This document shows positions 3,233 through 50,527 of a DNA stretch of 64,000 nucleotides, piece by piece. Source of the stretch: Candidatus Kerfeldbacteria bacterium. Lineage in GTDB: Bacteria > Patescibacteriota > Patescibacteriia > UBA9570 > XYC2-FULL-38-9. Within the stretch, counting starts at the first letter, position 1; each line of letters begins with the position of its first letter. The notes beneath the pieces are model-generated. The model was not told the DNA's origin. It ran no database searches and worked only from the letters and a program-made list of their open reading frames with translations. A program made the position numbers and the translations under genes. The DNA is taken from assembly GCA_043813585.1 (NCBI GenBank), contig JBDRKW010000006.1:79444-143443 (forward strand), written 5' to 3'.

Positions 3233-3305
3233 ATATGAATGTTAGGTTTTCTCCGCTTAGAATAGCATATTTTGGTTAAAAAAAGGAGCCCAGCATCGCC
3301 TACTC

Positions 3306-3734: not shown

Positions 3735-3805
3735 AACGTCCTCCCGTGAAATTGTTGAGATGCGTAGCCGTAGGATACCTGAGCCCTATAATATGTCAAA
3801 AAGAT

Positions 3806-3840
3806 AAACAAAAATGCCCCCATCTTAACGGGGGGCATTT
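3806..3840 (-). terminator. Rho-independent terminator downstream of csp
   Basis: GC stem ATGCCCCC/GGGGGCAT with an 8-nt loop. It is flanked by A-run and T-run, so it is a bidirectional-looking hairpin immediately 3' of the csp stop. Confidence 0.5.
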
Positions 3841-3862
3841 TCAGATGTTTGTAACGTTGTGC

Positions 3863-4063
3863 TTATGCACGGTGTACATTGACCGCCTGAGGACCTTTGT
3901 CCCCTTCAGTCACATCAAAGGTGACGTCATCGCCCTCTTGGAGGTCGTTGAAGTCAGCTTCCTGCAGCTCTGTAGCGTGGAAAAACAGGTCCTTCTCTTC
4001 GCCTTCGCGCGAGATGAAACCGTATCCCTTGTCCATGAGCCGTGCAATTTTGCCTTGTGCCAT
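3863..4063 (-). CDS. cspA: Cold-shock protein, CspA family
   Basis: 66 aa with RNP1/RNP2 motifs (KGYGFI, DLFFH). A 175-nt upstream leader, as is usual for csp genes. Confidence 0.9.
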   Translation of the reverse strand: MAQGKIARLMDKGYGFISREGEEKDLFFHATELQEADFNDLQEGDDVTFDVTEGDKGPQAVNVHRA

Positions 4064-4237
4064 TTGTGTAGGTAACTCTTTCTTAATTAGCCCGCATTAT
4101 GCACTAAAAGTGATTCGACTACGTCCTTTGTTAGTGCACACACGAACCAGACGATCATACACCACTATGCATAAAATGTCAAGCAAAAAAAGCACTGCGC
4201 CTTTATAGGGCAAGCTATACGGTCAACTTCCCTTATA

Positions 4238-5563: not shown

Positions 5564-5621
5564 ATGATATCCCTAATGGATAGTGAAAAATATCACACGA
5601 GACGGCAATTGTCAACGCCTT

Positions 5622-5663
5622 GCCATTCGGTCGGCAGGGCTCGAACCTGCGACCTCCTGGTTA
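5622..5663 (-). other. Degenerate partial copy of the tRNA-Asn 3' half (candidate att-site remnant)
   Basis: Positions 5632-5663 are 32/32 identical to 10021-10052 of the intact tRNA-Asn (T-arm through the 3' anticodon stem). The acceptor-side flank is degenerate: TTCGGTCGG versus CTCGGGCGG. Confidence 0.5.
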
Positions 5664-5734
5664 CACAATGCGCATTGAAAAGAGTCGTATTTAATGCTAC
5701 GATTGCAGCTGAATAGTTATTATCTGCATGATTT

Positions 5735-6766
5735 ATGGTGAATGTCAGGAAGGAAGGCGTATTGTTAAAACCCACAAAACACCGGTTCGAGAACCAGGGG
5801 GTATTGAACCCATCGTGCGTCCAGGACGGTAATACCGTCCACATGTTCTACCGGGCAGTCCGGAAAGGGAATTATTCGAGTATCGGGTATGCGCGCCTGG
5901 ACGGCCCAATGAATGTAGTGGAACGCGCAACAAAGCCTGTCTTGGAACCCAAAACAAAAGACGAGGTGCACGGGGTGGAAGATCCGCGCGTCGTCTTTTT
6001 TGAAGGAACCTATTACATGACCTATACCGCATATGACGGGCAAAACGCCCTTATCGGTTTGGCCACCAGCAAAGATATGAAAACATGGAAACGTTTCGGC
6101 ATTATCTCCCCGAACATCAAGTACCATGATGCGGAAAAATTTTTTAAAAGTGCAAAGCTCAAAGAAGCATATTACCTGTTCGAAGCCTTCATGGAGCACC
6201 GTTCCGGCCCGGATGTAAAAATATGGGATAAAGACGCATTTATTCTCCCGGAGCGTATCAACGGAAAAATTGCAATGATCCACCGCATCCTGCCTGATAT
6301 ACAGATAATCTATTTTGACGATTTTAAACAGTTAAAAACCAAAGCATTCTGGGAAAAATATCTTGCGGAAATGAATAAGCATATCGTGATGGAAAACAAG
6401 TACTGGTATGAAACGCGCAACATCGGCGGCGGCGGCCCGTTTATAAAGACAGACAAAGGATGGCTGACCATTTTTCATTCCGTGAAGTCGCGCAACATCG
6501 GCAGATCATACGCGGCAAGCGCAGCGCTTCTCGACCTCAAGGATCCGCAAAAAGTCATTGCCCGCACCAAAGACCCCCTCTTCATTCCCGAAAAAAAATG
6601 GGAGGTTAAAGGGGATGTCGACAACGTCGTGTTCCCCACGGGAACTGCCGTCTTCGGCGACCGGTTATACATTTATTACGGGGCGGCAGACACGCGCATC
6701 GCCGTGGCATCGGTGCGGCTGCAGGACCTAATTGATGATCTCCTAACCAATTGGCGGCATGTCTGA
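5735..6766 (+). CDS. Glycoside hydrolase family 130-like (beta-mannoside phosphorylase/glycosidase fold)
   Basis: 343 aa with a GH130/DUF377-type N-terminus (GVLNPSCVQDGNTVHMFYRA ... DPRVV ... YYMTYTAYDG). A possible alternative TTG start at 5762 is preceded by AGGAAGG. The stop overlaps the next gene's start codon. Confidence 0.65.
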   Translation: MVNVRKEGVLLKPTKHRFENQGVLNPSCVQDGNTVHMFYRAVRKGNYSSIGYARLDGPMNVVERATKPVLEPKTKDEVHGVEDPRVVFFEGTYYMTYTAYDGQNALIGLATSKDMKTWKRFGIISPNIKYHDAEKFFKSAKLKEAYYLFEAFMEHRSGPDVKIWDKDAFILPERINGKIAMIHRILPDIQIIYFDDFKQLKTKAFWEKYLAEMNKHIVMENKYWYETRNIGGGGPFIKTDKGWLTIFHSVKSRNIGRSYAASAALLDLKDPQKVIARTKDPLFIPEKKWEVKGDVDNVVFPTGTAVFGDRLYIYYGAADTRIAVASVRLQDLIDDLLTNWRHV

Positions 6767-9011
6767 CGGCACGCAACAACCTGAGCCGAAGCGCAGCCCG
6801 GAATCATGGGTTGTTTTTATCTCTTCGTATCCTCCGAGGGAATGCGGAATTGCAACCTACACGAAACACCTGTCACAAGAAATCGCAAAACAGATGCCCA
6901 AGCCGATGCAGGCTAAAATTATCGCCATCAACCCGTCAAAAACGAAATCGTATGATTACTCCCGAAATGTTATCCGCGAAGTTGCCGAGGGCGACCGCGA
7001 GGGATTCAAAGAAACGGCAGAATGGCTGAACCGGCAGACCCGCGTGAAACTCGTAGTTATTTCGCATGAGTTCGGCCTCTTTGGCGGGAAAACGGGCGAT
7101 GCGCTGCTCCCGTTCCTTGAGACAATAAAAAAACCGGTTATGACAATTTTCCATACTGTTTTGCCCCGGTCGCACAAGCAGTACGGCGAACCCACGGAAC
7201 GCGTCATAGAGCATTCGGACCAGATCATCGTCATGAATAAGACAGCGATGAAACTGATGAGCAAAGAATATAACGTGCTGGCAAAAAAGATAGCGCTCAT
7301 CCCCCATGGAATCCCCACCATCCCCGCGTATTCCAAGGATGAAGCAAGAAAGAAAATCGGCCTGGGCGACCGGCTGGTCCTGTCCAGCTTCGGGCTGCTG
7401 GGTCCGTGCAAAGGCTACGATGTGGTACTTTCCGGCCTTCCGCAAGTTGTCCGCGAGTTCCCGAATGTCATCTACCTTATTCTCGGACAGACACATCCGA
7501 AAATTTTGCAGAAGCAGGGCGAAGTGTACCGCCATAAGCTTGAACGCCTCGTACGCAAACTGAAGCTGGAAAATAATGTAAGATTTTACAACCACTATCT
7601 TAGCCAGGAAGACGTGGTGAAGTACCTGAAAGCGACGAACATCTACGTTTGCGCATCGCAGGATCCCAATCAGATGGTCAGCGGAACGCTGTCCTACGCA
7701 CTCGGTTCGGGAACGGCAACTGTCTCCACGCCTTTTATGCACGCCAGGGAGCTGGCTGAGGATAACGTGATTATGCTGGCAAATTTTGTTGACCCTAGCT
7801 CGTTTGCAAAAGCGATCCTTGCCCTTTTAAAGGACCCGTCAAAGCGGCAGGAATACGAGGAACGCGCGTTTACGACGACGCGAAAAATGACGTGGCCAAA
7901 CGTTGCGCACGCGTACTATAAAAGAATGCTGCCGTACCTGGGAGAACTAGCAGACAAGCAAGCTTCACAACTGCCGGCCTTGCGAAGCGTTTCACTCAAA
8001 CACCTGATGCGCCTGACTGACGATTTCGGAGTCATTCAATTCGCGCAGCGGTCGGTTCCCGATATCGAATCAGGATATTGCGTGGACGATGTTTCGCGCG
8101 CGCTGGTGGCGCTGACAACGTATTGGGTCATCTACCGCAAGCCCGCCATACTGCTGACGATCAGGAAGTACCTGGATTTCATCCGTTACGTACAGGGTAA
8201 AGACGGCCGTTTTTTCAACTATGTAGACAAGAATAAGATTATTAACACGGAAGACTGGAGCAGAGATGCACACGCCCGGACGGTATGGGCGCTCGGCTAC
8301 CTCATGGCAGCCCCGGGGATACCAAAAACATTAAAAGTCCGCGCGGAAACGCTGTTTGCAGCAAGCCTGCCGATAGCGAAACATATGGACAGCCTGCGTT
8401 CAATGAGTTTTTCCACCATCGGCCTCTATTTCTTCTTTCAATACTCACATTCGCCTGCTGCAAAAAAACAACTCACTGCGTATGCCGAAGCGCTAGTAAA
8501 ACAGTTCGATGCGCACGCCCATGGCGACTGGCAGTGGTTTGAAGACCGGCTCACCTATTCCAACAGCAAGCTGCCGGAAACGCTGTTCTACGCGTTTACG
8601 GTCACCAGGAACAAACGTTACCTCGAGGTGGCGGAAACAGCGCTTGATTTCCTGATACGAACCACATTTGTTAACGAGGTGTTCCACCCCATCGGACAGG
8701 ACGGATGGTACGAACGGAACGGCAAACGCGCCCATTTTGACCAGCAGCCGGTCGATACTGCTTCAATGGTGCGGACACTGATGGTCGCATACCGGGTTAC
8801 CGACCGCCTTGAATACCTCGAAAAAGCGCACGTCGCATACAGCTGGTTCCTGGGCAACAACGCGCTGCACCTGTTGCTGTATAATGAAACAACGGGCGGC
8901 TGCCATGACGGACTGGGCAAAGAAGCCGTGAATCAAAACCAAGGGGCAGAGTCCACCATTGTTCATCTCATGGCGCGCCTGTGTATTGATACCCGGGCGA
9001 AGCTGCTATAA
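6759..9011 (+). CDS. GT4-family glycosyltransferase fused to a ~350-aa C-terminal (alpha/alpha)-toroid-like domain
   Basis: 750 aa. The N-terminal ~400 aa have GT4/GT-B features (EFGLFGG ... SSFGLLGPCKGYD ... NIYVCASQDPNQMVSGTLSYALGSGTATVSTP). The C-terminal half is helical with acidic motifs (DGWYERNG, NQGAES), suggesting a six-hairpin glycosidase-like fold by inference. The ATG overlaps the upstream stop (ATGTCTGA). Confidence 0.65.
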   Translation: MSDGTQQPEPKRSPESWVVFISSYPPRECGIATYTKHLSQEIAKQMPKPMQAKIIAINPSKTKSYDYSRNVIREVAEGDREGFKETAEWLNRQTRVKLVVISHEFGLFGGKTGDALLPFLETIKKPVMTIFHTVLPRSHKQYGEPTERVIEHSDQIIVMNKTAMKLMSKEYNVLAKKIALIPHGIPTIPAYSKDEARKKIGLGDRLVLSSFGLLGPCKGYDVVLSGLPQVVREFPNVIYLILGQTHPKILQKQGEVYRHKLERLVRKLKLENNVRFYNHYLSQEDVVKYLKATNIYVCASQDPNQMVSGTLSYALGSGTATVSTPFMHARELAEDNVIMLANFVDPSSFAKAILALLKDPSKRQEYEERAFTTTRKMTWPNVAHAYYKRMLPYLGELADKQASQLPALRSVSLKHLMRLTDDFGVIQFAQRSVPDIESGYCVDDVSRALVALTTYWVIYRKPAILLTIRKYLDFIRYVQGKDGRFFNYVDKNKIINTEDWSRDAHARTVWALGYLMAAPGIPKTLKVRAETLFAASLPIAKHMDSLRSMSFSTIGLYFFFQYSHSPAAKKQLTAYAEALVKQFDAHAHGDWQWFEDRLTYSNSKLPETLFYAFTVTRNKRYLEVAETALDFLIRTTFVNEVFHPIGQDGWYERNGKRAHFDQQPVDTASMVRTLMVAYRVTDRLEYLEKAHVAYSWFLGNNALHLLLYNETTGGCHDGLGKEAVNQNQGAESTIVHLMARLCIDTRAKLL

Positions 9012-9599
9012 TTTGTCCTGAATTTCTTTGAATAATTCGCCAAGCTTTTGCTGGGTTCGGCGTTCCAGCTGTTTTTGTTTGGGCGCCTGCCAGTTGATGA
9101 CGGCGGTTTTCCATGCGTCAGGCGAGAGCGCCTGCCCATGCTCGCCGTAAAAAACATTGAGATACCTGTCCGGCACGGCTAATCCGTTCTCCCGGCAAAT
9201 AAGAAGGTGGGGTATTTCATGAAGCATCTTCCTGCCGGATGCCATATACGCCAGCGTCGTATGGTGGCCGTCAAATAGAACGATCTTCCCGCCATGCACC
9301 CTGACAAGCTTGATGTTTGGAAGCCCGTCAGGCTCCAGGATGTCCTGTCCAGTGCCGATCTTTCGCATCATCTCCCTGATGCGCGGAAGCGACTGCATGC
9401 CTCCGACGTTATGCAATGGGATAATGTCGTTAAGTTCAATATCAATTTCTGCTGAATCAGTATTCAAACGCGTGTGCCGCCCGCTTCTTATGCAATCAAC
9501 AGCGTCGTACAATGAGTTGCTGTCATCTGCCGGAAGGGTAAAGCAAAACACCTCTCCGTCCGACAACTCTTTCATCTGAATCAGAGCGTTAAAATCCAT
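9006..9599 (-). CDS. Hypothetical protein with ParB/sulfiredoxin-like DGHH motif
   Basis: 197 aa containing KIVLFDGHHTTLAYMASG, which resembles the ParB-nuclease-domain DGHHR motif. Otherwise unrecognised. Confidence 0.4.
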   Translation of the reverse strand: MDFNALIQMKELSDGEVFCFTLPADDSNSLYDAVDCIRSGRHTRLNTDSAEIDIELNDIIPLHNVGGMQSLPRIREMMRKIGTGQDILEPDGLPNIKLVRVHGGKIVLFDGHHTTLAYMASGRKMLHEIPHLLICRENGLAVPDRYLNVFYGEHGQALSPDAWKTAVINWQAPKQKQLERRTQQKLGELFKEIQDKL

Positions 9600-9601
9600 G
9601 C

Positions 9602-9976
9602 GCTAGAGATCCTGATTATCACGCGTGGCAATCTCCGCGCACTCGTATTCGGAAACGCCCGGTCCGGAGCCTGAATACTCGCAATTCCGTCCGCAGCTGT
9701 AATCCCATTCCTCATCTTCCCATCCGCCTTTGTCCACTTGCTCCAGCGCCCATTCCTGGCAATCTTCAAGCGTTTCAAAGTCGAACGTGGCGTTTTCCGT
9801 TTCAGTTCCATGGGTAACGGTGCCTTTCCACGGCCGTTTTCCGCTGCAATTCCCGATATAGGCAATAAACGCAATGATAATGATAATACCGATAATCGTG
9901 CCGATAACCTTCTCCCACTCGATCTTTTTCTTCTCCTTTTTTTCGGGTTCTATAGGTATTGCGGTTAATAAGCATT
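9602..9976 (-). pseudogene. Small membrane protein ORF interrupted by a frameshift at a T7 (A7 sense) homopolymer
   Basis: The ATG at 9976 opens MLINRNTYRTRKK. One frame over, from the 7-nt run at 9938-9944, a clean ORF reads EKKKIEWEKVIGTIIGIIIIIAFIAYIGNCSGKRPWKG...EYECAEIATRDNQDL*, a TM helix plus an acidic Cys-containing domain. Six instead of seven A residues would join them into a 119-aa protein. The track ORF 9581..9874 is the wrong frame. Confidence 0.4.
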
Positions 9977-10012
9977 ATTATATCCCAGCCATAACAACTC
10001 GTACATAGAATA

Positions 10013-10088
10013 TGGCTCGGGCGGCAGGGCTCGAACCTGCGACCTCCTGGTTAACAGCCAGGCGCTCTACCAACTGAGCTACACCCGA
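10013..10088 (-). tRNA. tRNA-Asn (anticodon GTT), CCA encoded
   Basis: The reverse complement folds as a cloverleaf: acceptor UCGGGUG/CGCCCGA, D-arm GCUC-AGUUGGUA-GAGC, anticodon loop CUGUUAA (GUU), T-arm GCAGG-UUCGAGC-CCUGC, then GCCA. Confidence 0.9.
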
Positions 10089-10090
10089 AT

Positions 10091-10114
10091 ATAAAAGACC
10101 GGCGTTTCCGCCGG
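10091..10114 (-). terminator. Rho-independent terminator after the secreted repeat-protein gene
   Basis: Perfect 6-bp stem CCGGCG/CGCCGG with a TTTC loop. On the minus strand it is followed by TCTTTTAT. Confidence 0.4.
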
Positions 10115-10253
10115 CCTCGCTTATGTTGATTCGTCTGAAACTTAGATCAACGCAAACGGCGCCAGCGGATGCTGGGTATTGGTATTGCCGTTATTGTTGG
10201 TTGTTCGTTTCATAATGCGAATAGGTTACGCCAATTTTGGCGTTTTGTCAAGA

Positions 10254-11219
10254 CTACTCCTTGCTCGACTCTGTCAGGTACATCGAAATCTGGTTAGAGT
10301 AGGTGCCGCACTTACCGCCCAAATACTGGCATACGCGGACGAAATACGTTCCTGTACCATCATGCGCATACACCTTGCCGGAGGTTGCATACGGATCGCT
10401 GTAATACCCGTATGTATCACCGTCGCGCAGCGGATATTCCGGGCCGGAGGTGCGTGACCACACCAGCTTGAACCCCTTTGAAGAATAACCGTCAACGCTC
10501 CAATTCACCTTGCCGTCGCCGGCATCTGAAAGCGCAATCGAATTCACGATAGATTCAGGCTCTTCCAGGTACACCTTCACCTGGTTGGAGTAGGTGCCGC
10601 AGCGGCCTTTGTCAGAAAGGTATTCGCAGACGCGGACATAATAATTGCCCGTACCGTCTTTCGGGTACACATCGCCGTCGCGCGCGTCAGATTTCATGTA
10701 CGTCGCATAGTCGCCCGATTCGGTCGGATACTGCGGCCATTCATTCTTGGACCAGACTAACTTTTGCCCGCCGGGCGTTGCGCCGTCAACGCTCCAGATA
10801 AAATGCATATCCCCGACATGCGACAGGCTGATTGACTTTGCCTCTCCCTCGAACTTGGTCTTGATCTTGCGATTTCTGAATGGGCCTGAAACCGCTTTGC
10901 CGTCCTTCGCCTTCACACGGAACCTATACCTCTTATTCGACTTCAGTTGCTTGATTGTCACGCGGTTCGTCCACGTCCGTTTCTTCGTTATCAGCTGGCC
11001 ATTGTTCGGATTAACAACGCGCGTGACATACCGGTCCGCGCCTGAAACAGCTTTAAAGGCTAATTTAATCTTATGAGCGCCACGATAACGAATCTTGACC
11101 CATTCTACCTGGCCGAGCCCTGTAGTTTCGTTTGACCGGTCCGTTGTTTCAGCTGCGCTCGCCTGAACGGCAAACAGCATGCCAACAACCAGCATCGGAA
11201 CGATGAAAAGTTTTTTCAT
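10254..11219 (-). CDS. Secreted protein: signal peptide, FN3-like domain, two tandem ~95-aa Cys-pair repeats
   Basis: 321 aa. N-terminal MKKLFIVPMLVVGMLFAVQASA signal. Internal repeats SISLSHVGD...YYVRVCEYLSDKGRCGTYSNQVKVYLEE and SIALSDAGD...YFVRVCQYLGGKCGTYSNQISMYLTE. Confidence 0.55.
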   Translation of the reverse strand: MKKLFIVPMLVVGMLFAVQASAAETTDRSNETTGLGQVEWVKIRYRGAHKIKLAFKAVSGADRYVTRVVNPNNGQLITKKRTWTNRVTIKQLKSNKRYRFRVKAKDGKAVSGPFRNRKIKTKFEGEAKSISLSHVGDMHFIWSVDGATPGGQKLVWSKNEWPQYPTESGDYATYMKSDARDGDVYPKDGTGNYYVRVCEYLSDKGRCGTYSNQVKVYLEEPESIVNSIALSDAGDGKVNWSVDGYSSKGFKLVWSRTSGPEYPLRDGDTYGYYSDPYATSGKVYAHDGTGTYFVRVCQYLGGKCGTYSNQISMYLTESSKE

Positions 11220-11313
11220 ACGCGTATCAATTACAAATAAATTATGTTTGTCTTATCTTACACGAAAAATCGCCCGTGTCAAAGCGGACGATCCTCAATT
11301 GAACACCTTTAGT

Positions 11314-12603
11314 CTACGGGGTCAACCGGTTTATCATACGCGGAAACGGGATCGTCTCGCGAATATGATGGATGCCCGCCATCCAGCGCGTGAGGCGTTC
11401 GATACCGAACCCAAAACCGCTGTGCGGCACGCTGCCGTATTTCCGCAAATCCAGGTACCAGTCAAAAACGTCAATCGGCAGACGGGCCTCTTCCATGCGC
11501 GCTTTCAATGTATCGTAATCGTCCTCACGCTGGGAACCGCCGATGATCTCGCCAAATCCGCGCGGCGCAAGCATATCCGCGTTCAACACAAGTTCCGGGT
11601 TTTCCGGGTGCTGTTTCATGTAAAACGGCTTAATCTTCCCGGGCCAGTTCTTCACGATGACAGGAACAGCCGAATCCCTGGTAAGCAACTCCTCGTCATC
11701 CGCGCCAAGGTCATCACCGTACGCAATATCCGAACCGAGTTTCTGCAACGCAGGGATCACCTCATTATACGTCATATGGATAAATGGCGCGTCAACAACC
11801 GCCTGCAACTCCGCCGGATCGCGTTCCAGTATTGTAAGCTCCTGCAAGCCGTGTTCCAGCACGTACCGCATCATGTGCTTAACCGACTCTTCCTGGATGC
11901 GCAGGCTCTCCTCGTGCTCCACATACGCCATTTCCGGATTCAGCGACCAAAACTCGGTAAGGTGCTTCCTTGTCTTCGACTTTTCCGCGCGGAAGTTCGG
12001 CCCCAGGTCATACACCTTGCCGAACGACATGCACAGCGCCTCCAGGTACAGCTGGCCGTTCTGCGTCAGGTACGCTTTCGTGTCAAAATATTCAACCTCA
12101 AATAAATCCGTCGTGCCTTCGCATGAAGTCGGAGTGAAAATCGGCGTGTCAACCTGAATGAAACCGTTCGAATCGTAATACCCCTGCAGGCCGGCCTTCA
12201 CCAGACGTCGCAGACGCAACACAGCCCACTGTTTCGGGACACGCAGCCACAAATGCCGGTGGTTCAGCAAGAAGTCCGGCCCGTGTTCTTTCTTGCCGAT
12301 CGGATACTCCTCCGCAACCTGAATAATCTTCAGGTTCTGCACCTGCAATTCATACTCGTCCTTTTTCGGATGCTTGGAAACCGTGCCGGTGATCTCTACG
12401 GACGATTCAATCGTCACCGTGCCGGCCGCCTCCCACACCGCTTCCGGAACCTCCGGCTTGGAAACGATGGCCTGGGCAAAGCCGGAACCGTCGCGCACCT
12501 GCAAAAAAGCAATCTTTCCGGAAGATCGGAGGTTATAAACCCATCCGCGAATTGCCACCTCCCGGCCGACACAGTCTGAAAATTGTGATATTGGGGTAGT
12601 CAT
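11314..12603 (-). CDS. asnS: Asparaginyl-tRNA synthetase
   Basis: 429 aa class IIb enzyme. Motif 2 is NFRAEKSKTRKHLTEFWSLNPEMAY (AsnRS-type FRAE...T.RHL.EF) and motif 3 is GFGFGIERL. An N-terminal OB fold is present. Confidence 0.85.
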   Translation of the reverse strand: MTTPISQFSDCVGREVAIRGWVYNLRSSGKIAFLQVRDGSGFAQAIVSKPEVPEAVWEAAGTVTIESSVEITGTVSKHPKKDEYELQVQNLKIIQVAEEYPIGKKEHGPDFLLNHRHLWLRVPKQWAVLRLRRLVKAGLQGYYDSNGFIQVDTPIFTPTSCEGTTDLFEVEYFDTKAYLTQNGQLYLEALCMSFGKVYDLGPNFRAEKSKTRKHLTEFWSLNPEMAYVEHEESLRIQEESVKHMMRYVLEHGLQELTILERDPAELQAVVDAPFIHMTYNEVIPALQKLGSDIAYGDDLGADDEELLTRDSAVPVIVKNWPGKIKPFYMKQHPENPELVLNADMLAPRGFGEIIGGSQREDDYDTLKARMEEARLPIDVFDWYLDLRKYGSVPHSGFGFGIERLTRWMAGIHHIRETIPFPRMINRLTP

Positions 12604-41328: not shown

Positions 41329-41952
41329 TTATGCCGATTTTGCTGATTTGATAGTAACGATAGAACCGTTTGCACCCGGAACCGCGCCTTTCACCTTTAC
41401 GGTGTTGGTTTTCGCATCCGCCGAAATAATCTCCAGGTTCTTAACCGTAACGTTCTTATTGCCCATCTGGCCGCCCATACGCATTCCTTTAATAACATGC
41501 TGCGGCTGCTGTGCGCCAATCGAACCAGGCATGCGATTCTGGTCTTTATGGCCATGCGTTGCCGGTGAACCATGGAACCCGTGGCGCTTGACGACGCCTG
41601 CAAATCCACAGCCGATGCTGACTCCGCTGACGTCAACCATATCGCCTGCTTCAAACGTGTCGGCCGTGATTTTCTGACCCCGTTCATAGGTCTCTTCACT
41701 GCCGTCCGTCCGGAATTCGTTCAATACTGCAAACGTACCAAGGCCTTTTGTGTGGCCTTTCACTGACTTGCTGACATTCTTTTCTTTGCGCTCCCCAAAC
41801 CCGACCTGTACGGCCGAATAACCGTCAAAAGCATCTGTTTTTACCTGCGTTACAATAACCGGGCCGGCCTGAAGAATAGTTACCGGCGTAACCATGCCGT
41901 CTTCGCCATACTCCTGGCTCATTTCAATTTTCTTTGCAATCAGGAATTTCAT
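41329..41952 (-). CDS. rplC: 50S ribosomal protein L3
   Basis: 207 aa. GVTKGKGFAGVVKRHGF-type motif (GFAGVVKRHGFHG). Confidence 0.9.
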   Translation of the reverse strand: MKFLIAKKIEMSQEYGEDGMVTPVTILQAGPVIVTQVKTDAFDGYSAVQVGFGERKEKNVSKSVKGHTKGLGTFAVLNEFRTDGSEETYERGQKITADTFEAGDMVDVSGVSIGCGFAGVVKRHGFHGSPATHGHKDQNRMPGSIGAQQPQHVIKGMRMGGQMGNKNVTVKNLEIISADAKTNTVKVKGAVPGANGSIVTIKSAKSA

Positions 41953-42180
41953 AGTTTGATTATTGTTGACAGGCCGATAAAAAAGCCGTCATTTACGCGC
42001 ACCACACCGGTGTGATTTTCGTAGATCACGGCTCTTACTCATTGAACTCGTAATTGTGTGTAACGCTTTTTTATCCTTGTGTGCTTCTCTCTGATGGGCG
42101 GCTGATATCCCGTATGGGATCATTTTCGTCCGATGCAGAGGAAACGTATTAACTTCTTGTCAAAATGTGCAGAAATGATC

Positions 42181-42540
42181 TTAAATCATTTTCATTTCGA
42201 TATCAACCCCTGACGGCAAGGACAGGTTTGACAGCTCGTCAATCGTCTTTGGCGTTGGATTGATGATATCGACCAGCCGCTTGTGCACGCGCATTTCATA
42301 TTGGTCGCGCGCATCCTTGTGCACAAACGTGGATTTCAGCACCGTGAACTTCGACTTTTCAGTCGGCAGCGGCACCGGTCCGACAACTGTTGACCCCGAT
42401 CGCGTCGCCGTGTCAATGATGGTCTTGGTCGACTTATCGATGATCTTGCTGTCGTATGCCCGGATCTTCACGCGCAATTTCGTGGCAACCTCCGTGTCCG
42501 GACGCATATTCTTTTCGGTTTTTTTCTTTGTGGTCGGCAT
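42181..42540 (-). CDS. rpsJ: 30S ribosomal protein S10
   Basis: S10 core KLRVKIRAYDSKIID...GPVPLPT...KDARDQYE. The start may be the second Met (MRPDTE). Confidence 0.9.
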   Translation of the reverse strand: MPTTKKKTEKNMRPDTEVATKLRVKIRAYDSKIIDKSTKTIIDTATRSGSTVVGPVPLPTEKSKFTVLKSTFVHKDARDQYEMRVHKRLVDIINPTPKTIDELSNLSLPSGVDIEMKMI

Positions 42541-42610
42541 TGATGTATAAAGAGCAAGAATTCACCCGCCCCTTCTTGCAAGAAGGAAGAGAGGGCGGGC
42601 ATTCAAATTC

Positions 42611-43801
42611 TTATGCGATTATCTTAGTTACAACTCCTGAAGCAACCGTCTTTCCGCCCTCACGGACAGCAAAGCGCTGCTTCTCTTCCAGAGCAACCGG
42701 CTTGCCGAGTTTCACCTTGAAACTGACGGTATCGCCAGGCATGACCATCTCTGTGCCTTCAGGCAATTCAACTTCTCCGGTCACGTCCGTGGTGCGGATA
42801 TAGAACTGCGGCTTGTAACCCTTGGTAAACGGTGTTGCACGGCCGCCTTCATCCTTTGACAGGACATAGACCTCTGCATCAAATTCCGTGTGCGGAGTAA
42901 CCGATCCCGGTTTCGCAAGCACCTGACCGCGCTCAACCTCTTCCTTCTTGGTGCCGCGCAGCAAAATTCCGGCGTTATCGCCAGCCATACCTTCGTCCAA
43001 CTGCTTGTTGAACATCTCAATGCCTGTTACGACCGATTTCTGCGTTTCACCCAGACCCACGATCTCAACATCTTCATTAACACCCACTTTTCCGCGTTCA
43101 ATACGGCCGGTCACCACTGTGCCGCGGCCTTCAATTGAGAAGATATCTTCAATCGGCATCAGGAAATCCTGGTCAACGTCACGTACCGGTTGCGGAATGT
43201 ATTCGTCCAGGGTTTTTAGCAGTTCGATGATCGGCTTTGCGGCCTCTTCGTCAGTCGGATTCTCCAGTGCTTTCAGTGCAGAACCGCGGATAATAGGCGT
43301 TTCATCGCCCGGGTATTCATATTTGTTCAACAGGTCGCGGATTTCAACTTCAACCAGCGTCAAAAGCTCTTCGTCTTCAACCTGGTCAACTTTATTCAGG
43401 AAAACCACAACTGAAGGGACGCCGACCTGGCGAGCGAGCAGGATATGCTCTTTTGTCTGGGGCATTGGGCCGTCTGTTGCAGAAACAACAAGAATAGCGC
43501 CATCCATCTGAGCAGCGCCTGTGATCATGTTCTTCACATAATCTGCGTGGCCCGGGCAGTCAACGTGAGCATAATGACGTTTGTCCGTCTCGTACTCAAC
43601 GTGTGATGTATTAATAGTGATACCGCGCTCCTTTTCTTCCGGAGCGTTGTCGATGTCCTCAAACTTCTTGTCCTGTGCGGTTTTACCCTGTGCACCGGAA
43701 ACAGCGAGGATCGCAGCCGTCAACGTGGTTTTACCGTGGTCAACGTGACCAATGGTGCCGACATTGACGTGCGGTTTTGATCGATCGAACTTGTCAGCCA
43801 T
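42611..43801 (-). CDS. tuf: Elongation factor Tu
   Basis: 396 aa. [22 protein letters not shown]. Confidence 0.95.
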
Positions 43802-44042
43802 AAGTTTCTATAACTTTGTTTAGATAAAAATTCTTAATAAATAGACGATTCCGCAAAATGTATTGCGAAACGCGAAGTTAAAGATAGTGTGTTTACTATA
43901 GTCTGTCAAGTATTGGGCCCTGAACAGACCGCGTGTAAAACAGAGACGATTATACTTGAAACTGTTTGCTATGGCAAGAATTGTGCCTGTTCATGGTTTG
44001 GGGATAAACATAGTATAACTATTTCGCTAAAATTAGCCATAA

Positions 44043-45059
44043 TTAATATTCATCTTCACCAATAAACCAATCAAGATTCCTAATATGACTCGCCAACATA
44101 TCCGTATTCCCATGTTGTAGCAAGCCAATATATGATTGTAATACTGCAGGCAATGGGCACTGAAAAAAACGACGAAACATGCGTTGCTTTGTCCTTGTGC
44201 GCAATACCTTATGGTCCGAAAAATGCACCCAGCCCAGGAAGTCTATGCCTGAAGCTAATGAATGGATGTGCACTTTTTTTGAATGAAGCGACAAGCTTAG
44301 TTGACGATCCAGGAACAAACGTATTTGCGGAATCTGATGCACCAGCCATTCACGGTCATCAGACATCACAACAAAATCATCGGCATAGCGTATATAGGAC
44401 TTCGCTTTCAGCTGATGCTTTGCGAACTGGTCGAACTCATTCATATAGACATTCACAAACAGCTGCGAAGTCAGATTGCCAAGCGGTAGGCCAACCCTGA
44501 GAGATGAAAGATAAAAACTGGAAATAACACCCTCAAGAAGCCGCATAATATCCTCGTCAGGGATGTATTGCCGTAAAATCCCTATAAGAATGCCATGGTC
44601 GATAGATGCAAAAAACTTCCGAATATCACACTGCAGTACCCAGCAGGTTCGGGTGTTATTCCTGCTGGCTTTATATGCCATGGAACGAAACCGATCATTC
44701 GCTGCATGTGTTCCTTTGTTATTCCTGCATGAAAAAGAATCCGCAATAAATGTGCGGTCAAAAAAAGGATACAACTTGCGGTATATTGCGTGGTGCAATA
44801 ATCGATCACGGACGTCAGCCTTGTGGATGTGCCGGGGTTTCGGATCTGTGATATGGAAGCTATAATACCTGCCATGCCTGTAACTAAAGGATGCCAGCTC
44901 GTCATGCAGCTGAAGTATATTTGCCATCAGGTGACGTGAAAACAACTGCACATCCGGCTTTCCGCGTTTTCCGCGCACAAATTCTTTCCAGGCGGCTAAC
45001 AAATTTTCCACCGAAATAATTTCTTCGTAACTATGGCTGAATTGAATTCTCATAACCAA
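44043..45059 (-). CDS. Diversity-generating retroelement reverse transcriptase
   Basis: 338 aa. RT motifs include YADDFVV (motif 5) and the DGR-diagnostic LPLGNLTSQ (LGxxxSQ in place of the group II/retron QGxxxSP). The N-terminus AWKEFVRGKRGKPDV is typical of DGR RTs. An adjacent TR/VR pair is present. Confidence 0.85.
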   Translation of the reverse strand: MVMRIQFSHSYEEIISVENLLAAWKEFVRGKRGKPDVQLFSRHLMANILQLHDELASFSYRHGRYYSFHITDPKPRHIHKADVRDRLLHHAIYRKLYPFFDRTFIADSFSCRNNKGTHAANDRFRSMAYKASRNNTRTCWVLQCDIRKFFASIDHGILIGILRQYIPDEDIMRLLEGVISSFYLSSLRVGLPLGNLTSQLFVNVYMNEFDQFAKHQLKAKSYIRYADDFVVMSDDREWLVHQIPQIRLFLDRQLSLSLHSKKVHIHSLASGIDFLGWVHFSDHKVLRTRTKQRMFRRFFQCPLPAVLQSYIGLLQHGNTDMLASHIRNLDWFIGEDEY

Positions 45060-45117
45060 TCAGGACAATACCCCCCCCCAACAGCGTGGGGGCGATGATA
45101 TTCCAATTCTTGTTACG

Positions 45118-45465
45118 ATGCGGAGTGCATACGCTGCATGGCACGAATCGCTGAAGCACTTGCCGAAGGTATCGCGGTATTCGCTGGGAAAGAAAGTCGA
45201 CATATTGTTCACGGATACGATTGAAATAATACTTTACGCTGCGTATGCCAGGCGCGCTGACAAACTGGCGATTCTCCAAAAAGCCTGCGTAAAACTTGAT
45301 GCCCTGCAATTCTTCCTCCAACTCGCATGGGAACTGAACGTACTTGATAATAGGAAATATGGAGCTATTTCTACACCGCTAGCAGAAGTAGGAAAAATGC
45401 TCGGTGGCTGGAAAAAACAGTTTACGAAAGATGCCCCCAATAAACCGGGAGCACCTCGTGCATGA
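45118..45465 (+). CDS. avd: DGR accessory variability determinant (Avd-like four-helix-bundle protein)
   Basis: 115 aa, basic and helical. The C-terminus LDALQFFLQLAWELNV...PLAEVGKMLGGWKKQ parallels Bordetella-phage Avd (LAMLRFWLRFLAG...IAEVGRILGSWIARV). Oriented opposite to the RT, target and TR. Confidence 0.65.
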   Translation: MRSAYAAWHESLKHLPKVSRYSLGKKVDILFTDTIEIILYAAYARRADKLAILQKACVKLDALQFFLQLAWELNVLDNRKYGAISTPLAEVGKMLGGWKKQFTKDAPNKPGAPRA

Positions 45466-45471
45466 AGAGTG

Positions 45472-45596
45472 TTGCGGGGGACGCGAACCAGGAAGCGCCA
45501 GTTGTCGTTCCAGTCGTTCTCGAACCAGTTGAGGTTGAGGTTGCGCTCGTTGGCGTTCTCGTTCAGGTACGGCACGTTGCGGTTGCCGTTGGCATT
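45472..45596 (-). repeat. DGR template repeat (TR)
   Basis: 125 bp aligns without gaps to the VR at 45962-46086. All 15 mismatches fall on TR sense-strand adenines (34 A in total), mostly within AAC codons. The first 30 nt are identical to VR. Confidence 0.85.
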
Positions 45597-45904
45597 GTCC
45601 AGGGTACCATCCACACCACCACCCGTTGACTGCTCTCCGGGCTGTATCGAATTTGGGATATTTTAATCCTCCAGTACCCTGCACCAACAATCTTCATATT
45701 TAGAGTTTGCCGGCAGCACACTGGCCATTGCCGTGGCGTTGGCCACTCCGACCGGATCGGCAAACCCGGAATTCAACCGGCTGCAGCCGTAACCGCAGCC
45801 TGTCTCGTTTACTATCCATGTATTATTGTATCAAAATAATTGAATAAAAAAAGGGGCTTCACCAGAGAACCGGTCTCTAGGAAGCCATTTTGTCATCGCG
45901 CGAG

Positions 45905-45949
45905 GGACCAAGGGTCCAAGACCTAAAAGGACTAAGGATCCAAGAGTCC
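45905..45949 (-). promoter_or_regulatory. Two short GC hairpins just 3' of the VR/target stop (candidate DGR homing-enhancing structure)
   Basis: GGACC-AAG-GGTCC (45905-45917) and GGACT-(11-nt loop with GGATCC)-AGTCC (45929-45949). CCAAG/GTCCAAG motifs are repeated. Confidence 0.3.
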
Positions 45950-45954
45950 AAGCG

Positions 45955-46638
45955 CTAGTTTTTGCGGGGGACGCGAACCAGGAAGCGCCAGAAGTCGTAC
46001 CAGTCGTCCTCGAACCAGTAGAGGTAGAGGTCGCGCTCGCGGGCGCTCTCGTACAGGCACGGCACGTTGCGGTGGCCGTGGGCATCCGACCAGGGCACGC
46101 ACAGAATGGCGACAGGGAAGTCACGCTGCACGTCCGGGTAGTCCCGGGCGAACACGAGTCCATCGCCGAAGCTCGGACGCTGGTACCCGCTCTCCTTCAC
46201 GGCTGCCAGCACGTCCCCGGTGGACATGTAGCGGCCGAAGTGCACGACCGCCAAATCGTACTCTCCCTCTGCCGGGTCGTCCGGGGAGTTCTGCAGCGGA
46301 AACCGATCCTCGGTGATGTCCGAGTTGGTCCGGTCGAACTTCCCCGCCTTCAGTGCCTCGATCCAGCGCCAGCTAAGGCTCCAGGTCACCGGGAACGAGT
46401 CGCTCACCGTAAGCTTGACCGGCTTCAACTCGACCTTCGAGGCGCTGTCCGGCCGGCCCGCCTCCACGACCAGGTCAGCGAACCGACCGATCAGGGGACG
46501 GCCCTCCGGCGTTGCCAGGCGGTAGATCTCCTCGTCCATACCGCCGCGCTCCTTCACCGCGTTGACCAACTCGGTCCACACAGTGGTCAGAAGACCAGCT
46601 CCGGACACAATCGGGGACACATCTTTCCTCTTCGCCAT
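45955..46638 (-). CDS. DGR variable (target) protein with C-terminal FGE/C-type-lectin-like variable region
   Basis: 227 aa. The last ~42 codons form the VR (HGHRNVPCLYESARERDLYLYWFEDDWYDFWRFLVRVPRKN). The matching TR translation is NGNRNVPYLNENANERNLNLNWFENDWNDNWRFLVRVPRN. The protein ends with an FRxxR-like motif. Confidence 0.8.
   Translation of the reverse strand: MAKRKDVSPIVSGAGLLTTVWTELVNAVKERGGMDEEIYRLATPEGRPLIGRFADLVVEAGRPDSASKVELKPVKLTVSDSFPVTWSLSWRWIEALKAGKFDRTNSDITEDRFPLQNSPDDPAEGEYDLAVVHFGRYMSTGDVLAAVKESGYQRPSFGDGLVFARDYPDVQRDFPVAILCVPWSDAHGHRNVPCLYESARERDLYLYWFEDDWYDFWRFLVRVPRKN
45962..46086 (-). repeat. DGR variable repeat (VR) at the 3' end of the target gene
   Basis: See TR. 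Differences from TR occur only at TR adenines (A to T/G/C). The 30-nt identical GC-rich 3' block is IMH-like. Confidence 0.85.
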
Positions 46639-46835
46639 GACTTACTCCTTTCGTTATGCATTCCCCTCACCCTGCAACCACGCGAGGGCCTCAGGAACGC
46701 GGTTCGTCACAGCCCGCAATATACAAACCACGCTAACATAGCGCATTTACAGCCTGCGGACTGCAACGAAAAACTATCTGGCTATACATTAACCAGACAG
46801 TGGAAACTACACAATTTTGGCAAAAATGTCAAGGT

Positions 46836-46862
46836 ACAAAAAAGCCCGGGATCAACCGGGCT
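46836..46862 (-). terminator. Rho-independent terminator after fusA
   Basis: GCCCGG-ATCAA-CCGGGC stem-loop followed by TTTTTTGT on the minus strand, 20 nt after the fusA stop. Confidence 0.5.
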
Positions 46863-46883
46863 TTCCACTATCTGTACTTCTAT

Positions 46884-49019
46884 TTACTCTTCGTCTTCGT
46901 CGTCCGCTACAACGCCGCCGCGATCCTCAACGATCTTATTTGATACGTTCTTCGGCACCTGGCTGTATTTCTCGAATTCCATTGAGAAACTCGCCCGTCC
47001 CTGCGTGATAGAACGTAATTGCGTTGCGTAGCCGAACATTTCGGACAGCGGAACGGTCGCTTCAACAACCTTCATATTGCCGCGATCGGTCATTTCGCCG
47101 ATCTGTCCGCGCTTTGAGTTCAGGTCGCCCATCACATCGCCCATGAAATCTTCAGGCGTCACCACCTCAACACTCATGACCGGCTCGAGCAGCACAGGTC
47201 CCGCTCTGCGTGCGGCGGTTTTGAACGCCTTGGAACCGGCTATTTTGAACGCCGCTTCAGACGAGTCAACGTCATGGTACGAACCGTCAATCAGACGAAC
47301 CTTGATATCCAGCAGAGGATATCCGGCAACAATGCCGCGGTCCATGGCTTCCCTTACGCCTTTCTCAATAGGCGCAATAAATTCGCGCGGAATGGATCCG
47401 CCTTTAGTCTGATCCACAAACTCGAAGTGTTTCTTCTCTTCCTCATCTTCCGGCTGTACATACGGCTCGACAATAAGCACGCAATGGCCGTACTGTCCGC
47501 GGCCGCCGGTCTGCTTGACGTACTTCTCTTCGCCTTCAGCTTCCTTAGTAATAGTTTCCTTGTACGCCACCTGCGGCTGGCCGATATTCGCCTCGACATT
47601 GAACTCGCGCTTCATGCGGTCGATGATGATGTCCAGATGCAGCTCGCCCATGCCGGACAATACCGTCTGGTTCGTCTCTTCATCGGATTTGACGCGCAGG
47701 GTAGGATCCTCTTCCACCAGGCGCTGGATCGCAATGCCCATCTTTTCCTGGTCTGCCTTGGTTTTCGGCTCAACCGCAATGGAAATGACCGGTTCCGGGA
47801 AGGTAATCTGTTCCAGAACAATTGGATGCTCCGGATCGCACAGCGTGCTGCCGGTAATGGTTTCTTTCAGGCCGACTGCAGCGGCAATGTCTCCGGCGCA
47901 GATCTCTTCAATTTCTTCGCGGGAATTTGCATGCATGCGGACCAGGCGCGAAATGCGTTCCTTGTTGCCAGTGGTCATGTTCAGCACGTACGAACCTGAT
48001 TTTAGCACGCCCGAATAGACGCGGATAAAAATAAGCTTTCCGACATACGGGTCAGTCGCCACTTTAAAGGCCAACGCTGCCAGCGGCTGATCATCATCAG
48101 TGGTGCGCTCGATTTCTTTCTCCAGGTCGTCTGCGTCATGCCCGATGGTCGGAGGAAGGTCAAGCGGCGACGGCAGGTAGGCCGTCACTGCATCCAGCAT
48201 GTACTGGACGCCTTTATTTTTTAGAGCCGAACCGCACAGCACCGGAACGATATCGTTCGCGATTGTTGCCACACGCAGCACCCTTATGATATCTGCTTCG
48301 CTGATCTCCTTGCCTTCGAGGTAATCATTCATCAGTGCTTCGTCATTTTCAACCACTGCCTCAACCAGTTCCGCGCGATATTTCTCAACTTTGTCTTTCA
48401 TGTCCTCGGGCACGTCGACTTCCTCAAAATCAGTTCCCATTTCATCCTTATAAATGACCGCTTTGCGACGGATGATGTCGATGATGCCCTGGAAGGTGTC
48501 AGCCGCGCCAATCGGCAGCTGAATCGGGAACGCACGCTTGGTCAGGCGGTTATGGATTGAATCCATGTCCTTGTAGAAGTCCGCGCCAGTGCGGTCCATC
48601 TTATTGATGAACGCCAGCCGCGGTACGCTGTACTTGTCTGCCTGGTGCCATACGGTCTCGGACTGCGGTTCAACGCCGGCAACGCCGTCAAATATCACAA
48701 CGCCGCCGTCCAGAACGCGGAGCGAGCGCTCCACCTCTACCGTGAAGTCAACGTGGCCCGGGGTATCGATGATATTGATCTTGGTGTCTTTCCAGAACGC
48801 CGTTGTCGCGGCAGCAGTAATCGTAATGCCGCGCTCCTGTTCCTGTTCCATCCAGTCCATGGTGGCTTCGCCCTCATGCACTTCGCCGATCTTATGCGTG
48901 CGGCCGGTATAAAACAGGACGCGCTCGGTGACCGTCGTCTTTCCCGCGTCAATATGGGCGATAATGCCGATATTGCGAGTTTTTTCCAATGGATAGTGTA
49001 CTTTTTCTTCTTCTGACAT
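46884..49019 (-). CDS. fusA: Elongation factor G
   Basis: 711 aa. [22 protein letters not shown], and domains II-V are conserved. Confidence 0.95.
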
Positions 49020-49044
49020 ATCGTTATCTCTGTTTCATTATAGG

Positions 49045-49509
49045 TTATGCAAAGTGAGCAAATGCGCGGTTGGATTCTGCCATGCGCTGGACATCTTCCT
49101 TCCTCTTCATCGCGTCTCCTTCGCCGTTCGCCGCATCCATAATTTCGAGAGCGAGTTTTTCCCGCATTGGCTTGCCCTTGCGCTTGCTTGCCGCCTCAAT
49201 AATCCAACGGCTGGCCAGCGTGAACCGGCGTTCCGGCCGGACCTCGATAGGCACCTGGTAGTTTGCACCGCCAATACGGCGAGCGCGCACTTCAAGTGAC
49301 GGTGTGATGTTCTGCATCGCCTTCAGCCATGCATCATACCCAGGCTCGCCTGTCTTTTTTTCGACAAGATCAAACGCGCCGTAGACAATTTTGGTCGCCT
49401 TGGTTTTCTTGCCGCCTTTCATGATGTAATTGATGAACTTTGCTACCTGTGTTGAATTGTAACGTTCATCTGGTTTTATATCTCTCTTTGGAGCTTGTTT
49501 GCCTCTCAT
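49045..49509 (-). CDS. rpsG: 30S ribosomal protein S7
   Basis: 154 aa. MRGKQAPKRDIKPDERYNS. Confidence 0.9.
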   Translation of the reverse strand: MRGKQAPKRDIKPDERYNSTQVAKFINYIMKGGKKTKATKIVYGAFDLVEKKTGEPGYDAWLKAMQNITPSLEVRARRIGGANYQVPIEVRPERRFTLASRWIIEAASKRKGKPMREKLALEIMDAANGEGDAMKRKEDVQRMAESNRAFAHFA

Positions 49510-49521
49510 ATGTATCTGTTA

Positions 49522-49944
49522 TTAATCGCCTTTCGGTTTCTTCACCCCATAGATCGAACGGGACTGTTTGCGTCCGTCAACGCCCTGCGTATCATACACG
49601 CCGCGCACGACGCGGTAGCGAACGCCCGGCAGATCCGGCACGCGGCCACCTTTGATCATGACGATGCTGTGTTCCTGCAAGTTGTGGCCCTCGCCCGGGA
49701 TATAGGCGGTGACTTCCATTCCATTTGAAAGACGGACACGCGCAATCTTCCGAAGCGCCGAGTTCGGCTTGGTCGGAGTGGTCGTGGTTACTTTGATGCA
49801 CACACCGCGCTTGAAAGCAGAGCCTTTCGGCAGCTTTGTGCGGCGGCGCTTGAGTGCGTTCATTGTGGTTTGGAGCGCAGGGGTTTTGGACTTCTTTTTG
49901 GACTGTTTCCGACCTTTGCGCACCAATTGATTCGTTGTAGGCAT
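49522..49944 (-). CDS. rpsL: 30S ribosomal protein S12
   Basis: 140 aa. [13 protein letters not shown] ... [10 protein letters not shown]. Confidence 0.9.
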
Positions 49945-50281
49945 GGTTTAGATTATTTTGTAATTCAATACTGTTTCGCCACGCTTGGTCGCGGTGTTTT
50001 TTCTCGTTCGAGGAGAGATTCTCTCTCGAATAAAACACGCGCTCCCGTCGGGCGAAACAACCTCCGTATTTAGTTGAAGTTCTAAACTATGACCTTCTCA
50101 GTTCTATTGAACGTCATAACTTGGAATCTTCCATCTTTCATTGTCAGCGTACATTTCAGCCATGAAATGCAGACGCTTGGAACCGAAACGATTGTACGAT
50201 ATGCGGTGCGCCCTGTCAAGCAGCGCCGGTTCTTGCGGCAAATCGCAGTGCGCGGTACAATAGCAGTGCAAATAAATACCT

Positions 50282-50527
50282 ATGGGTTTAGAAATCCTTC
50301 CAAATTTTCTCTTTCTGGCAAAAGCAATCGTTATCGCTGTTGGTGTCATAACGCTGTTTGTTATCATCGCAGCGATGATAGAGTTCTACATCCACCGCGG
50401 CAAAAAGGATAAAGAAGAGGAGATGAAAGGCCATGTAATAAACGGCCTCATCGCTGTCGTCATTGCGCTGATTGTCTACCTGCTGCTTTCAGGCATAGGT
50501 CCGGCGTTCAACGCGCTGTTCAGATAA
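50282..50527 (+). CDS. Small two-TM membrane protein (pilin-like topology)
   Basis: 81 aa. Two hydrophobic helices separated by HRGKKDKEEEMKGH. Followed directly by a terminator. Family is speculative. Confidence 0.35.
   Translation: MGLEILPNFLFLAKAIVIAVGVITLFVIIAAMIEFYIHRGKKDKEEEMKGHVINGLIAVVIALIVYLLLSGIGPAFNALFR

Follow-up and report, generated by a model that had tools for sequence, protein, structure and literature searches.

In a 64,000-nucleotide stretch of contig JBDRKW010000006.1 (the window), from a Candidatus Kerfeldbacteria metagenome-assembled genome (MAG), a diversity-generating retroelement (DGR) is situated between fusA, which encodes elongation factor G (EF-G), and tuf, which encodes elongation factor Tu (EF-Tu). 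How did such an element come to lie between two genes that are neighbors in the classical str operon, and was its arrival responsible for separating them? An earlier note on this DNA regarded the element as a mobile cassette in an unusual location that had split the operon in this lineage. The analysis presented here favors another answer, with a probability of about 0.75. A complete DGR of the type found in the ultra-small bacteria of the Candidate Phyla Radiation (CPR), with the component order known as B3, would occupy a flexible slot between fusA and tuf. In this slot tuf is accompanied by conserved promoter-like elements of its own, and the DGR is one of many occupants.

The retroelement and its kin

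Open reading frame (ORF) calls and Pfam matches confirm the gene identities of the earlier note and its minus-strand order, rpsL-rpsG-fusA-[target with variable repeat (VR), template repeat (TR), avd, reverse transcriptase (RT)]-tuf-rpsJ-rplC. The members of the cassette were listed correctly; avd, however, is encoded on the plus strand and diverges from the RT gene (Table 1). The fusA-tuf gap spans 3082 nt and contains two predicted terminators, the first of them following fusA, and one opposite-strand gene. The two genes are not adjacent in one contiguous unit, as a classical str operon would have them. The window RT is 100% identical to protein P0001 of the Kerfeldbacteria MAG, and the target protein is identical to P0241, the hypothetical protein ABIG66_02105 of the same MAG record. 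The fusA product is 76–81% identical to the EF-G proteins of Kerfeldbacteria, and EF-Tu is 84–90% identical to those of the Kerfeldbacteria relatives.

The evidence for a DGR begins with the two repeats. TR and VR form a direct repeat of 125 nt in which 15 of 15 differences occur at TR adenines. Every one of them affects the first or second position of a codon and alters the encoded residue, a pattern that is far from chance. Eleven of the 12 AAC codons in TR differ in VR. The last 36 nt are identical between the repeats, GC-rich and adenine-free, and are followed by a hairpin; this imperfect hairpin directly 3' of VR possibly corresponds to the inverted repeat that other DGRs have downstream of their initiation of mutagenic homing (IMH) sequence, and may have a role in homing. 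No further copy of TR or VR was found in the 64-kb window.

The RT presents LGNLTSQ at residue 191 and YADD at residue 223, and so possesses both the motif 4 signature ([I/L/V]GxxxSQ) and the catalytic YxDD by which DGR-clade RTs are recognized. After P0001, its next relatives are RTs from many CPR groups at 63–69% identity, and RT homologues from CPR adjoin TR/VR pairs in 42 loci. The avd product scores 45.9 bits against Pfam bAvd, above the cutoff of 40, and 65 bits (E 6.6e-18) against NCBIfam DivGenRetAVD, below the cutoff of 80. The start codons of RT and avd are separated by 64 nt (45054-45117), and this spacer contains a hairpin-forming C5/G9 run, cccccacgctgttggggggggg, that could serve both divergent genes as a common regulatory element.

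The target protein was more elusive. A word-indexed search matched the protein to itself only, and an exhaustive HMMER search was needed to reveal its family. This family consists of proteins of approximately 200 residues, to which the target ORF can be aligned from end to end; at E<=1e-3 it counts 1838 cluster representatives, of which 547 reach E<=1e-10. No Pfam domain was matched. An AlphaFold2 model calculated from an alignment had a predicted local distance difference test score (pLDDT) of 88.9; from the single sequence, the score was only 36. A Foldseek search with the model placed C-type-lectin-like domains at the top of the PDB matches with non-significant E values of 0.5–5, and the modeled C-terminal domain is probably C-type-lectin-like.

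Among known DGRs, the architecture B3, TR-(avd)-RT, makes up 90% of the CPR DGRs described by Wu et al. 2018 (PMC5758913), and Roux et al. 2021 (PMC8144416) defined a clade of cell-encoded DGRs, 'DGR clade 2', that is restricted to Patescibacteria. The window cassette has the B3 arrangement: the target is upstream, and avd sits between TR and RT in reverse orientation. It was compared with 80 related metagenomic DGR loci that were picked by RT similarity and not at random. The divergent avd-RT layout is present in approximately 70 of the 80, and spacing is regular in 42 loci, with VR about 0.9–1.0 kb upstream of RT and TR about 0.45–0.5 kb after VR. The window element resembles these DGRs in how its parts are ordered and oriented, in an RT that is 63–69% identical to thousands of CPR RTs, in adenine-specific TR/VR mismatches, in being chromosomal and cell-encoded, and in a small target protein with no Pfam domain. 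It differs from them only in its neighborhood, fusA on one side and tuf on the other, and even this recurs at a second locus, L120. Judged from its sequence, this is a complete chromosomal DGR with B3 architecture that belongs to the CPR-specific clade and appears functional. In itself it is nothing new, being a DGR of the standard CPR type from a publicly available MAG, and one more member of its group.

In another Kerfeldbacteria MAG (L001 4451-10999, RT 66% identical), a DGR of the same type is found immediately downstream of dnaG-rpoD, with a Bro-N domain gene after it. DGRs of this type thus do not keep one position within Kerfeldbacteria.

The prototype of these elements is the DGR of Bordetella phage BPP-1 (mtd-avd-TR-brt), in which adenine-specific mutagenic retrohoming transfers TR to VR at the 3' end of the target gene. 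The window element shares with it an Avd protein, an AAC-rich TR, changes at codon positions 1 and 2, and a GC-rich, adenine-free 3' repeat end followed by a hairpin. The BPP-1 element is phage-borne with all genes on one strand, avd upstream of TR, and a tail-fibre receptor-binding protein as its target. In the window, the target belongs to the 200-residue type and has no evident signal peptide, and avd lies antisense between TR and RT; as a result, a transcript covering both TR and RT would run antisense through avd.

By analogy with the family, TR would be transcribed from the minus strand, and RT and Avd would copy it into cDNA with misincorporation opposite template adenines. The cDNA would then replace VR. 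In this manner, up to about 12 AAC codons could be rewritten in the C-terminal domain of the 227-residue target protein.

Table 1. Positions of features in the window, and of the junctions and DGRs in other genomes to which the text refers
Locus	Feature	Position or gap	Strand	Basis or content
Window	rpsL	49522-49944	-	ORF call
Window	rpsG	49045-49509	-	ORF call
Window	fusA (EF-G, 711 aa)	46884-49019	-	Pfam GTP_EFTU, EFG_III, EFG_IV, EFG_C
Window	Predicted intrinsic terminator of fusA	46833-46866	-	11-bp stem 46839-46866, then T-run
Window	Promoter-like TTGACA-17-TAGTTT, directly 3' of fusA terminator	46804-46832	-	Read from sequence
Window	DGR target gene (227 aa)	45955-46638	-	GC 0.65, GC at third codon positions 0.85; VR at 3' end of open ORF
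Window	VR, last 41 codons of target gene	45962-46086	-	Direct repeat with TR
Window	Imperfect hairpin directly 3' of VR	45898-45955	-	Fold of 45835-45960: dG -44.4 kcal/mol, z -4.3
Window	Predicted intrinsic terminator of target gene	45846-45886	-	Fold; stem 45855-45886 and run of seven T
Window	TR	45472-45596	-	Intergenic; 35 adenines, 12 AAC codons within repeat
Window	avd accessory gene (115 aa)	45118-45465	+	Pfam bAvd, E 8.6e-12
Window	DGR reverse transcriptase (336 aa, ATG at 45053)	44043-45053	-	RVT_1, E 3e-20
Window	Conserved tuf upstream block, including 5' leader	43802-44007	-	Promoter scan and alignment with relatives
Window	DnaA-box-like 9-mer TTATCCCCA	43999-44007	-	9-mer positions in relatives
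Window	Distal tuf sigma-70-like site TTGCCA-17-TATAAT	43949-43977	-	11/12 consensus positions
Window	Proximal tuf sigma-70-like site TTGACA-17-TATCTT	43881-43909	-	10/12 consensus positions
Window	tuf (EF-Tu, 396 aa)	42611-43801	-	Pfam
Window	rpsJ, downstream of tuf	42181-42540	-	ORF call
Window	rplC, downstream of rpsJ	41329-41952	-	Followed by rest of S10 operon
L083/84	fusA-tuf junction	7.1 kb		Four paralogous hypothetical proteins, RND transporter
L088	fusA-tuf junction	5.5 kb		Two hypothetical proteins of the L083/84 kind, transporter
L085	fusA-tuf junction	4.7 kb		GSP_synth-like protein, TPR protein
L171	fusA-tuf junction	3.3 kb		RelA_SpoT, AAA_14/DUF4143, dCMP deaminase
L089	fusA-tuf junction	2.2 kb		DUF975, small ORFs
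L170	fusA-tuf junction	2.0 kb		ECF sigma factor, 377-aa protein
L086/87	fusA-tuf junction	Contig ends before tuf		Scarred region with foreign fusA 3' fragment
L172	fusA-tuf junction	178 nt		Empty
Other CPR	Small pre-tuf ORF	L003 3897-4319; L004 10075-10407; L005 10738-11112; L007 11402-11695; L011 5729-6010; L055 10730-11086		
L120	DGR at fusA/tuf			Unrelated complete DGR, 288-aa target, 14/14 mismatches at A; then Phd/YefM-like ORF and 79-aa partner
L142	DGR at rpsJ/rplC (S10 operon)	1507-5977		Complete; A-specific mismatches; avd opposite ribosomal-gene strand
L169	DGR at rplE/rpsN (spc operon)	7806-11332		Complete; A-specific mismatches; avd opposite ribosomal-gene strand
L125	DGR at rplQ/rplU			Complete; A-specific mismatches

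The fusA-tuf junction in related genomes

Whether the position of the DGR is unusual depends upon what other genomes hold at the same place. Nine lineages, all Kerfeldbacteria, were identified by EF-G (76–81% identity) through a protein search and contig look-ups. They share a frame of M50 peptidase, rpsL, rpsG and fusA followed by tuf, rpsJ and rplC, and differ in the content of the fusA-tuf gap. One lineage (L172) is empty at this junction. Of the other contigs, seven extend as far as tuf and have unrelated cargo of 2.0–7.1 kb, and one ends inside its cargo. Homologues of RT, avd and the target were absent from the L083-L089 contigs, and none of these families was present among the called fusA-tuf genes of L170-L172, as judged from gene calls with no tblastn search. 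The earlier note had asked for this comparison of synteny and considered that the same intergenic genes might turn up in relatives as ancestral content; the relatives carry different genes. Because they hold varied cargo there, the junction is best described, from gene order, as a flexible slot in Kerfeldbacteria and many other CPR and not as a tight operon joint. If the junction was flexible beforehand, the DGR is one of many alternative occupants and not the cause of the split.

A scan of contigs with EF-G gave no relative above 70% identity among the matches listed. Among those matches, other CPR classes have fusA-tuf gaps of 0.4–5 kb that contain pilin-like proteins, large secreted proteins and a small Phd/YefM-like ORF; the gaps of the non-CPR loci listed are mostly shorter than 200 nt. 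The small ORF is conserved directly upstream of tuf in several CPR lineages other than Kerfeldbacteria, encodes 93–140 residues with an N-terminus like 'KKTGDRIIVFD', and has a weak similarity to Phd/YefM antitoxins that is below the Pfam cutoff. It usually has no toxin partner. It was undetectable in the window or in the Kerfeldbacteria relatives.

One relative preserves what looks like a recombination scar in the slot. In L086 (10805-11395; identical in L087), a chimeric ORF situated 660 nt downstream of the resident fusA joins the N-terminal 67 residues of a YchF-like GTPase to the last 129 residues of a foreign EF-G. The foreign fusA 3' fragment is 79% identical to the resident copy in amino acids and 76% in nucleotides. 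Its presence in the slot points to recombination with foreign DNA at the fusA-tuf joint.

Published work on translation operons split by inserted genes offers some parallel, since in some lineages the operons are separated while the flanking gene order is kept. There the inserted genes sit between operons, and selection on contiguity is measurable. The CPR insertions, in contrast, lie within the classical str operon at fusA/tuf and, in the case of L142 and L169, within the S10 and spc operons. At fusA/tuf they are the rule in CPR and not the exception.

Transcription units and cassette edges

The hairpin terminator that the earlier note assigned to fusA appears real. Its fold has a dG of -17 kcal/mol (z -2.95), none of 200 shuffles was as good, and its stem is that given in Table 1 and not 46836-46862 as first placed. 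Five cargo-bearing relatives have a hairpin at this position with different arm sequences. The terminator is not present in L172, where the conserved block upstream of tuf begins one base past the fusA stop codon. Compared with this empty site, the window has an extra segment at 44008-46883 (2876 nt), and the terminator lies within it because L172 lacks one. The promoter-like box directly 3' of the terminator is common to L086 and in part to L083; it falls below the threshold of a consensus scan and is a candidate promoter of the target gene.

On the other side of the cassette, the 241-nt spacer between RT and tuf holds two sigma-70-like sites. The earlier note reasoned that a new tuf promoter must be found in this spacer. 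Two promoter-like sites are indeed there, but they would not be new since the block that contains them is conserved: alignments place it in the window, in L083, L085, L088, L170 and L171, and in L172 within its 178-nt spacer. The order of the block is a TTWTCCACA 9-mer, TTGnnA-17-TATAAT, and then CTTGACAG-17-TATnnT.

The 9-mer matches the DnaA-box consensus and stands about 20 nt upstream of the distal tuf -35-like box in Kerfeldbacteria (L172 12149-12157; L083 17015; L085 14634; L088 17436; L170 13999; L171 15209; window position in Table 1). It would be expected by chance approximately once per 64 kb.

Since fusA is followed by a terminator and tuf has promoter-like sites of its own, the two genes most likely form separate transcription units in the window. 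In E. coli and Bacillus, too, tuf is served by its own promoters besides that of the operon. The window keeps the gene order of the str operon of E. coli and other bacteria (rpsL-rpsG-fusA-tufA), and L172, with its short spacer, promoter boxes and no terminator, resembles a str operon with secondary tuf promoters. The window departs from that plan with a strong predicted terminator and 2.9 kb of foreign genes, one on the opposite strand, between fusA and tuf. With two conserved promoter-like elements carried by tuf, whatever lies upstream would be tolerated. The slot may thus be pictured as four units: fusA with its terminator; the promoter-like site, target gene and second terminator; TR and RT on one strand, and on the other avd, antisense to this unit and divergent from RT; and the tuf promoters with tuf. 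The separation of fusA from tuf most likely is independent of the DGR and predates its arrival. Of the earlier claim about an unusual location that splits the operon, the separate units are therefore retained, and the DGR as the agent of the split is not, the junction being already flexible with varied cargo in relatives.

A rival explanation extends the view of the earlier note: a mobile DGR would have inserted recently into an intact rpsL-rpsG-fusA-tuf operon and brought with it a terminator and a new tuf promoter, splitting the operon. The position of the fusA terminator inside the extra segment agrees with such an event, as does the sharp change in composition within the cassette, where the GC content is 0.65 in the target gene and 0.44 in RT against approximately 0.51–0.54 in host genes. 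The edges of the cassette tell otherwise. No target-site duplication was found and the flanks share no 9-mer; terminal repeats, an integrase and a transposase are likewise absent, RT and avd being the only cassette ORFs with family matches. There are no fusA or tuf remnants within the cassette, and no Rfam match in 41800-50300. The cassette thus lacks the features of a self-mobile insertion, whether transposon, integrative element or group II intron, and no DGR is known to transpose as a unit. Together with tuf promoter boxes that are kept in relatives including the empty site, and a junction that in relatives is already occupied by varied cargo, these observations make a recent insertion improbable. 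Most likely, the cassette would have arrived by a recombination that exchanged cargo between conserved flanking genes, and not by mobility of its own.

The change in composition was also considered by itself as a mark of a cassette that is mosaic or recent in origin. In the target, the part outside VR (window 46087-46638) was compared with RT (window 44043-45053) in the loci L001 and L092-L169. The same contrast appeared in 35 of 35 related loci across a host GC range of 0.35–0.65. On average, the target exceeds RT by 14 points and the flanks by 9, and RT is about 5 points under the flanks. The excess in the target sits at third codon positions, where C and G are both raised and A and T both lowered, and so is not specific to adenine. 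Being a family-wide trait, the GC jump gives no evidence of recent transfer and was rejected as such a mark. When such genomes are annotated, a jump in composition within a CPR DGR should be regarded as normal and not as a sign of recent transfer.

Could the junction have been made in assembly? A DGR fragment from another population might have been joined chimerically between fusA and tuf. The source is a MAG, its composition is heterogeneous within 3 kb, and no second assembly of this organism came up in exact-sequence look-ups of RT, EF-Tu and P0001. Such an artefact would need two precise joins that restore the synteny and orientation of both rpsL-rpsG-fusA and tuf-rpsJ-rplC. Both flanks, the fusA terminator with its promoter-like box and the tuf upstream block, run unbroken into sequence conserved in relatives. 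Moreover, in the independently assembled L120 the junction is occupied by a different DGR, relatives regularly carry cargo there, and such a GC pattern is usual among DGRs of this family. An assembly artefact is thus very hard to credit.

Several points weigh against a DGR in a pre-existing flexible slot. The promoters and terminators are predictions, and the number of promoter-like sites in the region (five) is close to that in shuffled sequences (4.6), so that only their conservation lends them weight. L172 could have lost both cargo and terminator, in which case the ancestral junction might have been filled and not empty. The closest relatives found are at 81% identity in EF-G and 69% in RT, and the structural matches to the target were weak.

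Retroelements in the ribosomal gene string

The window is not alone in having a DGR among translation genes. Informative flanks on both sides were available for 27 of the 80 related loci. Three of the 27 (L120, L142 and L169) lie inside the str-S10-spc string, and the count becomes four with L125, between rplQ and rplU. Wu et al. also noted ribosomal protein genes within five CPR DGRs (PMC5758913).

The rpsJ/rplC joint that holds the DGR of L142 is a gap of 228 nt in the window (41953-42180), and gaps of similar order occur at this joint in Kerfeldbacteria relatives. It may be a second loose joint, within the S10 operon of Kerfeldbacteria.

Do CPR DGRs favor this neighborhood for a reason? A functional coupling would have them prefer the ribosomal and elongation factor supercluster, either for strong, growth-coupled transcription or for targets in the translation apparatus. 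The three or four loci in the string lend themselves to this idea, and ribosomal proteins S10, L5, S16 (twice), L21, L31 and L3 are among the immediate neighbors. A Pfam survey of 92 such neighbors found mostly housekeeping genes and a single transposase, with gyrA/B, recA, aminoacyl-tRNA synthetases, NusG, NusB, TsaD, Pth, YbeY, UvrB and MurB as further examples, a broad sampling of the kind that a small genome rich in such genes would give. By our own estimate of roughly 50 genes in 1000 in CPR, about 5% of random junctions would fall in the supercluster; a binomial calculation against this share gave P of approximately 0.15 for 3/27 and 0.04 for 4/27. Enrichment was therefore set aside, the observed rate being at most mildly above that expected of random placement. 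The window target also has a promoter-like site and a terminator of its own, and avd runs antisense to the flow of the operon. Functional coupling is thus unlikely.

A DGR as one occupant of a flexible slot leaves room for a broader, tentative proposal that we regard as possible but doubtful. The joints of the CPR supercluster, above all fusA/tuf, would be conserved landing pads whose cargo is swapped by homologous recombination anchored in the conserved flanking genes. Besides DGRs, such cargo may comprise pilin-like proteins, large surface proteins, transporters, sigma factors and pairs resembling toxin-antitoxin systems. If this were true, a DGR at such a joint would gain a strongly transcribed neighborhood that is never deleted, and the foreign fusA fragment of L086/87 and the unrelated DGRs that recur at fusA/tuf, rpsJ/rplC and rplE/rpsN would be traces of the process.

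The placement of the DGR is a modest curiosity and not a new kind of system. Its meaning lies more with the genes around it. Gene strings that hardly vary outside CPR (fusA-tuf, rpsJ-rplC and rplE-rpsN) tolerate multi-kilobase cargo in CPR genomes, opposite-strand genes included, and at fusA/tuf the cargo varies between related genomes while the tuf promoter block stays. This bears on the strength of selection for operon contiguity in slow-growing, reduced genomes. The fusA/tuf junction also offers a defined place at which gene flux in uncultured lineages can be compared.

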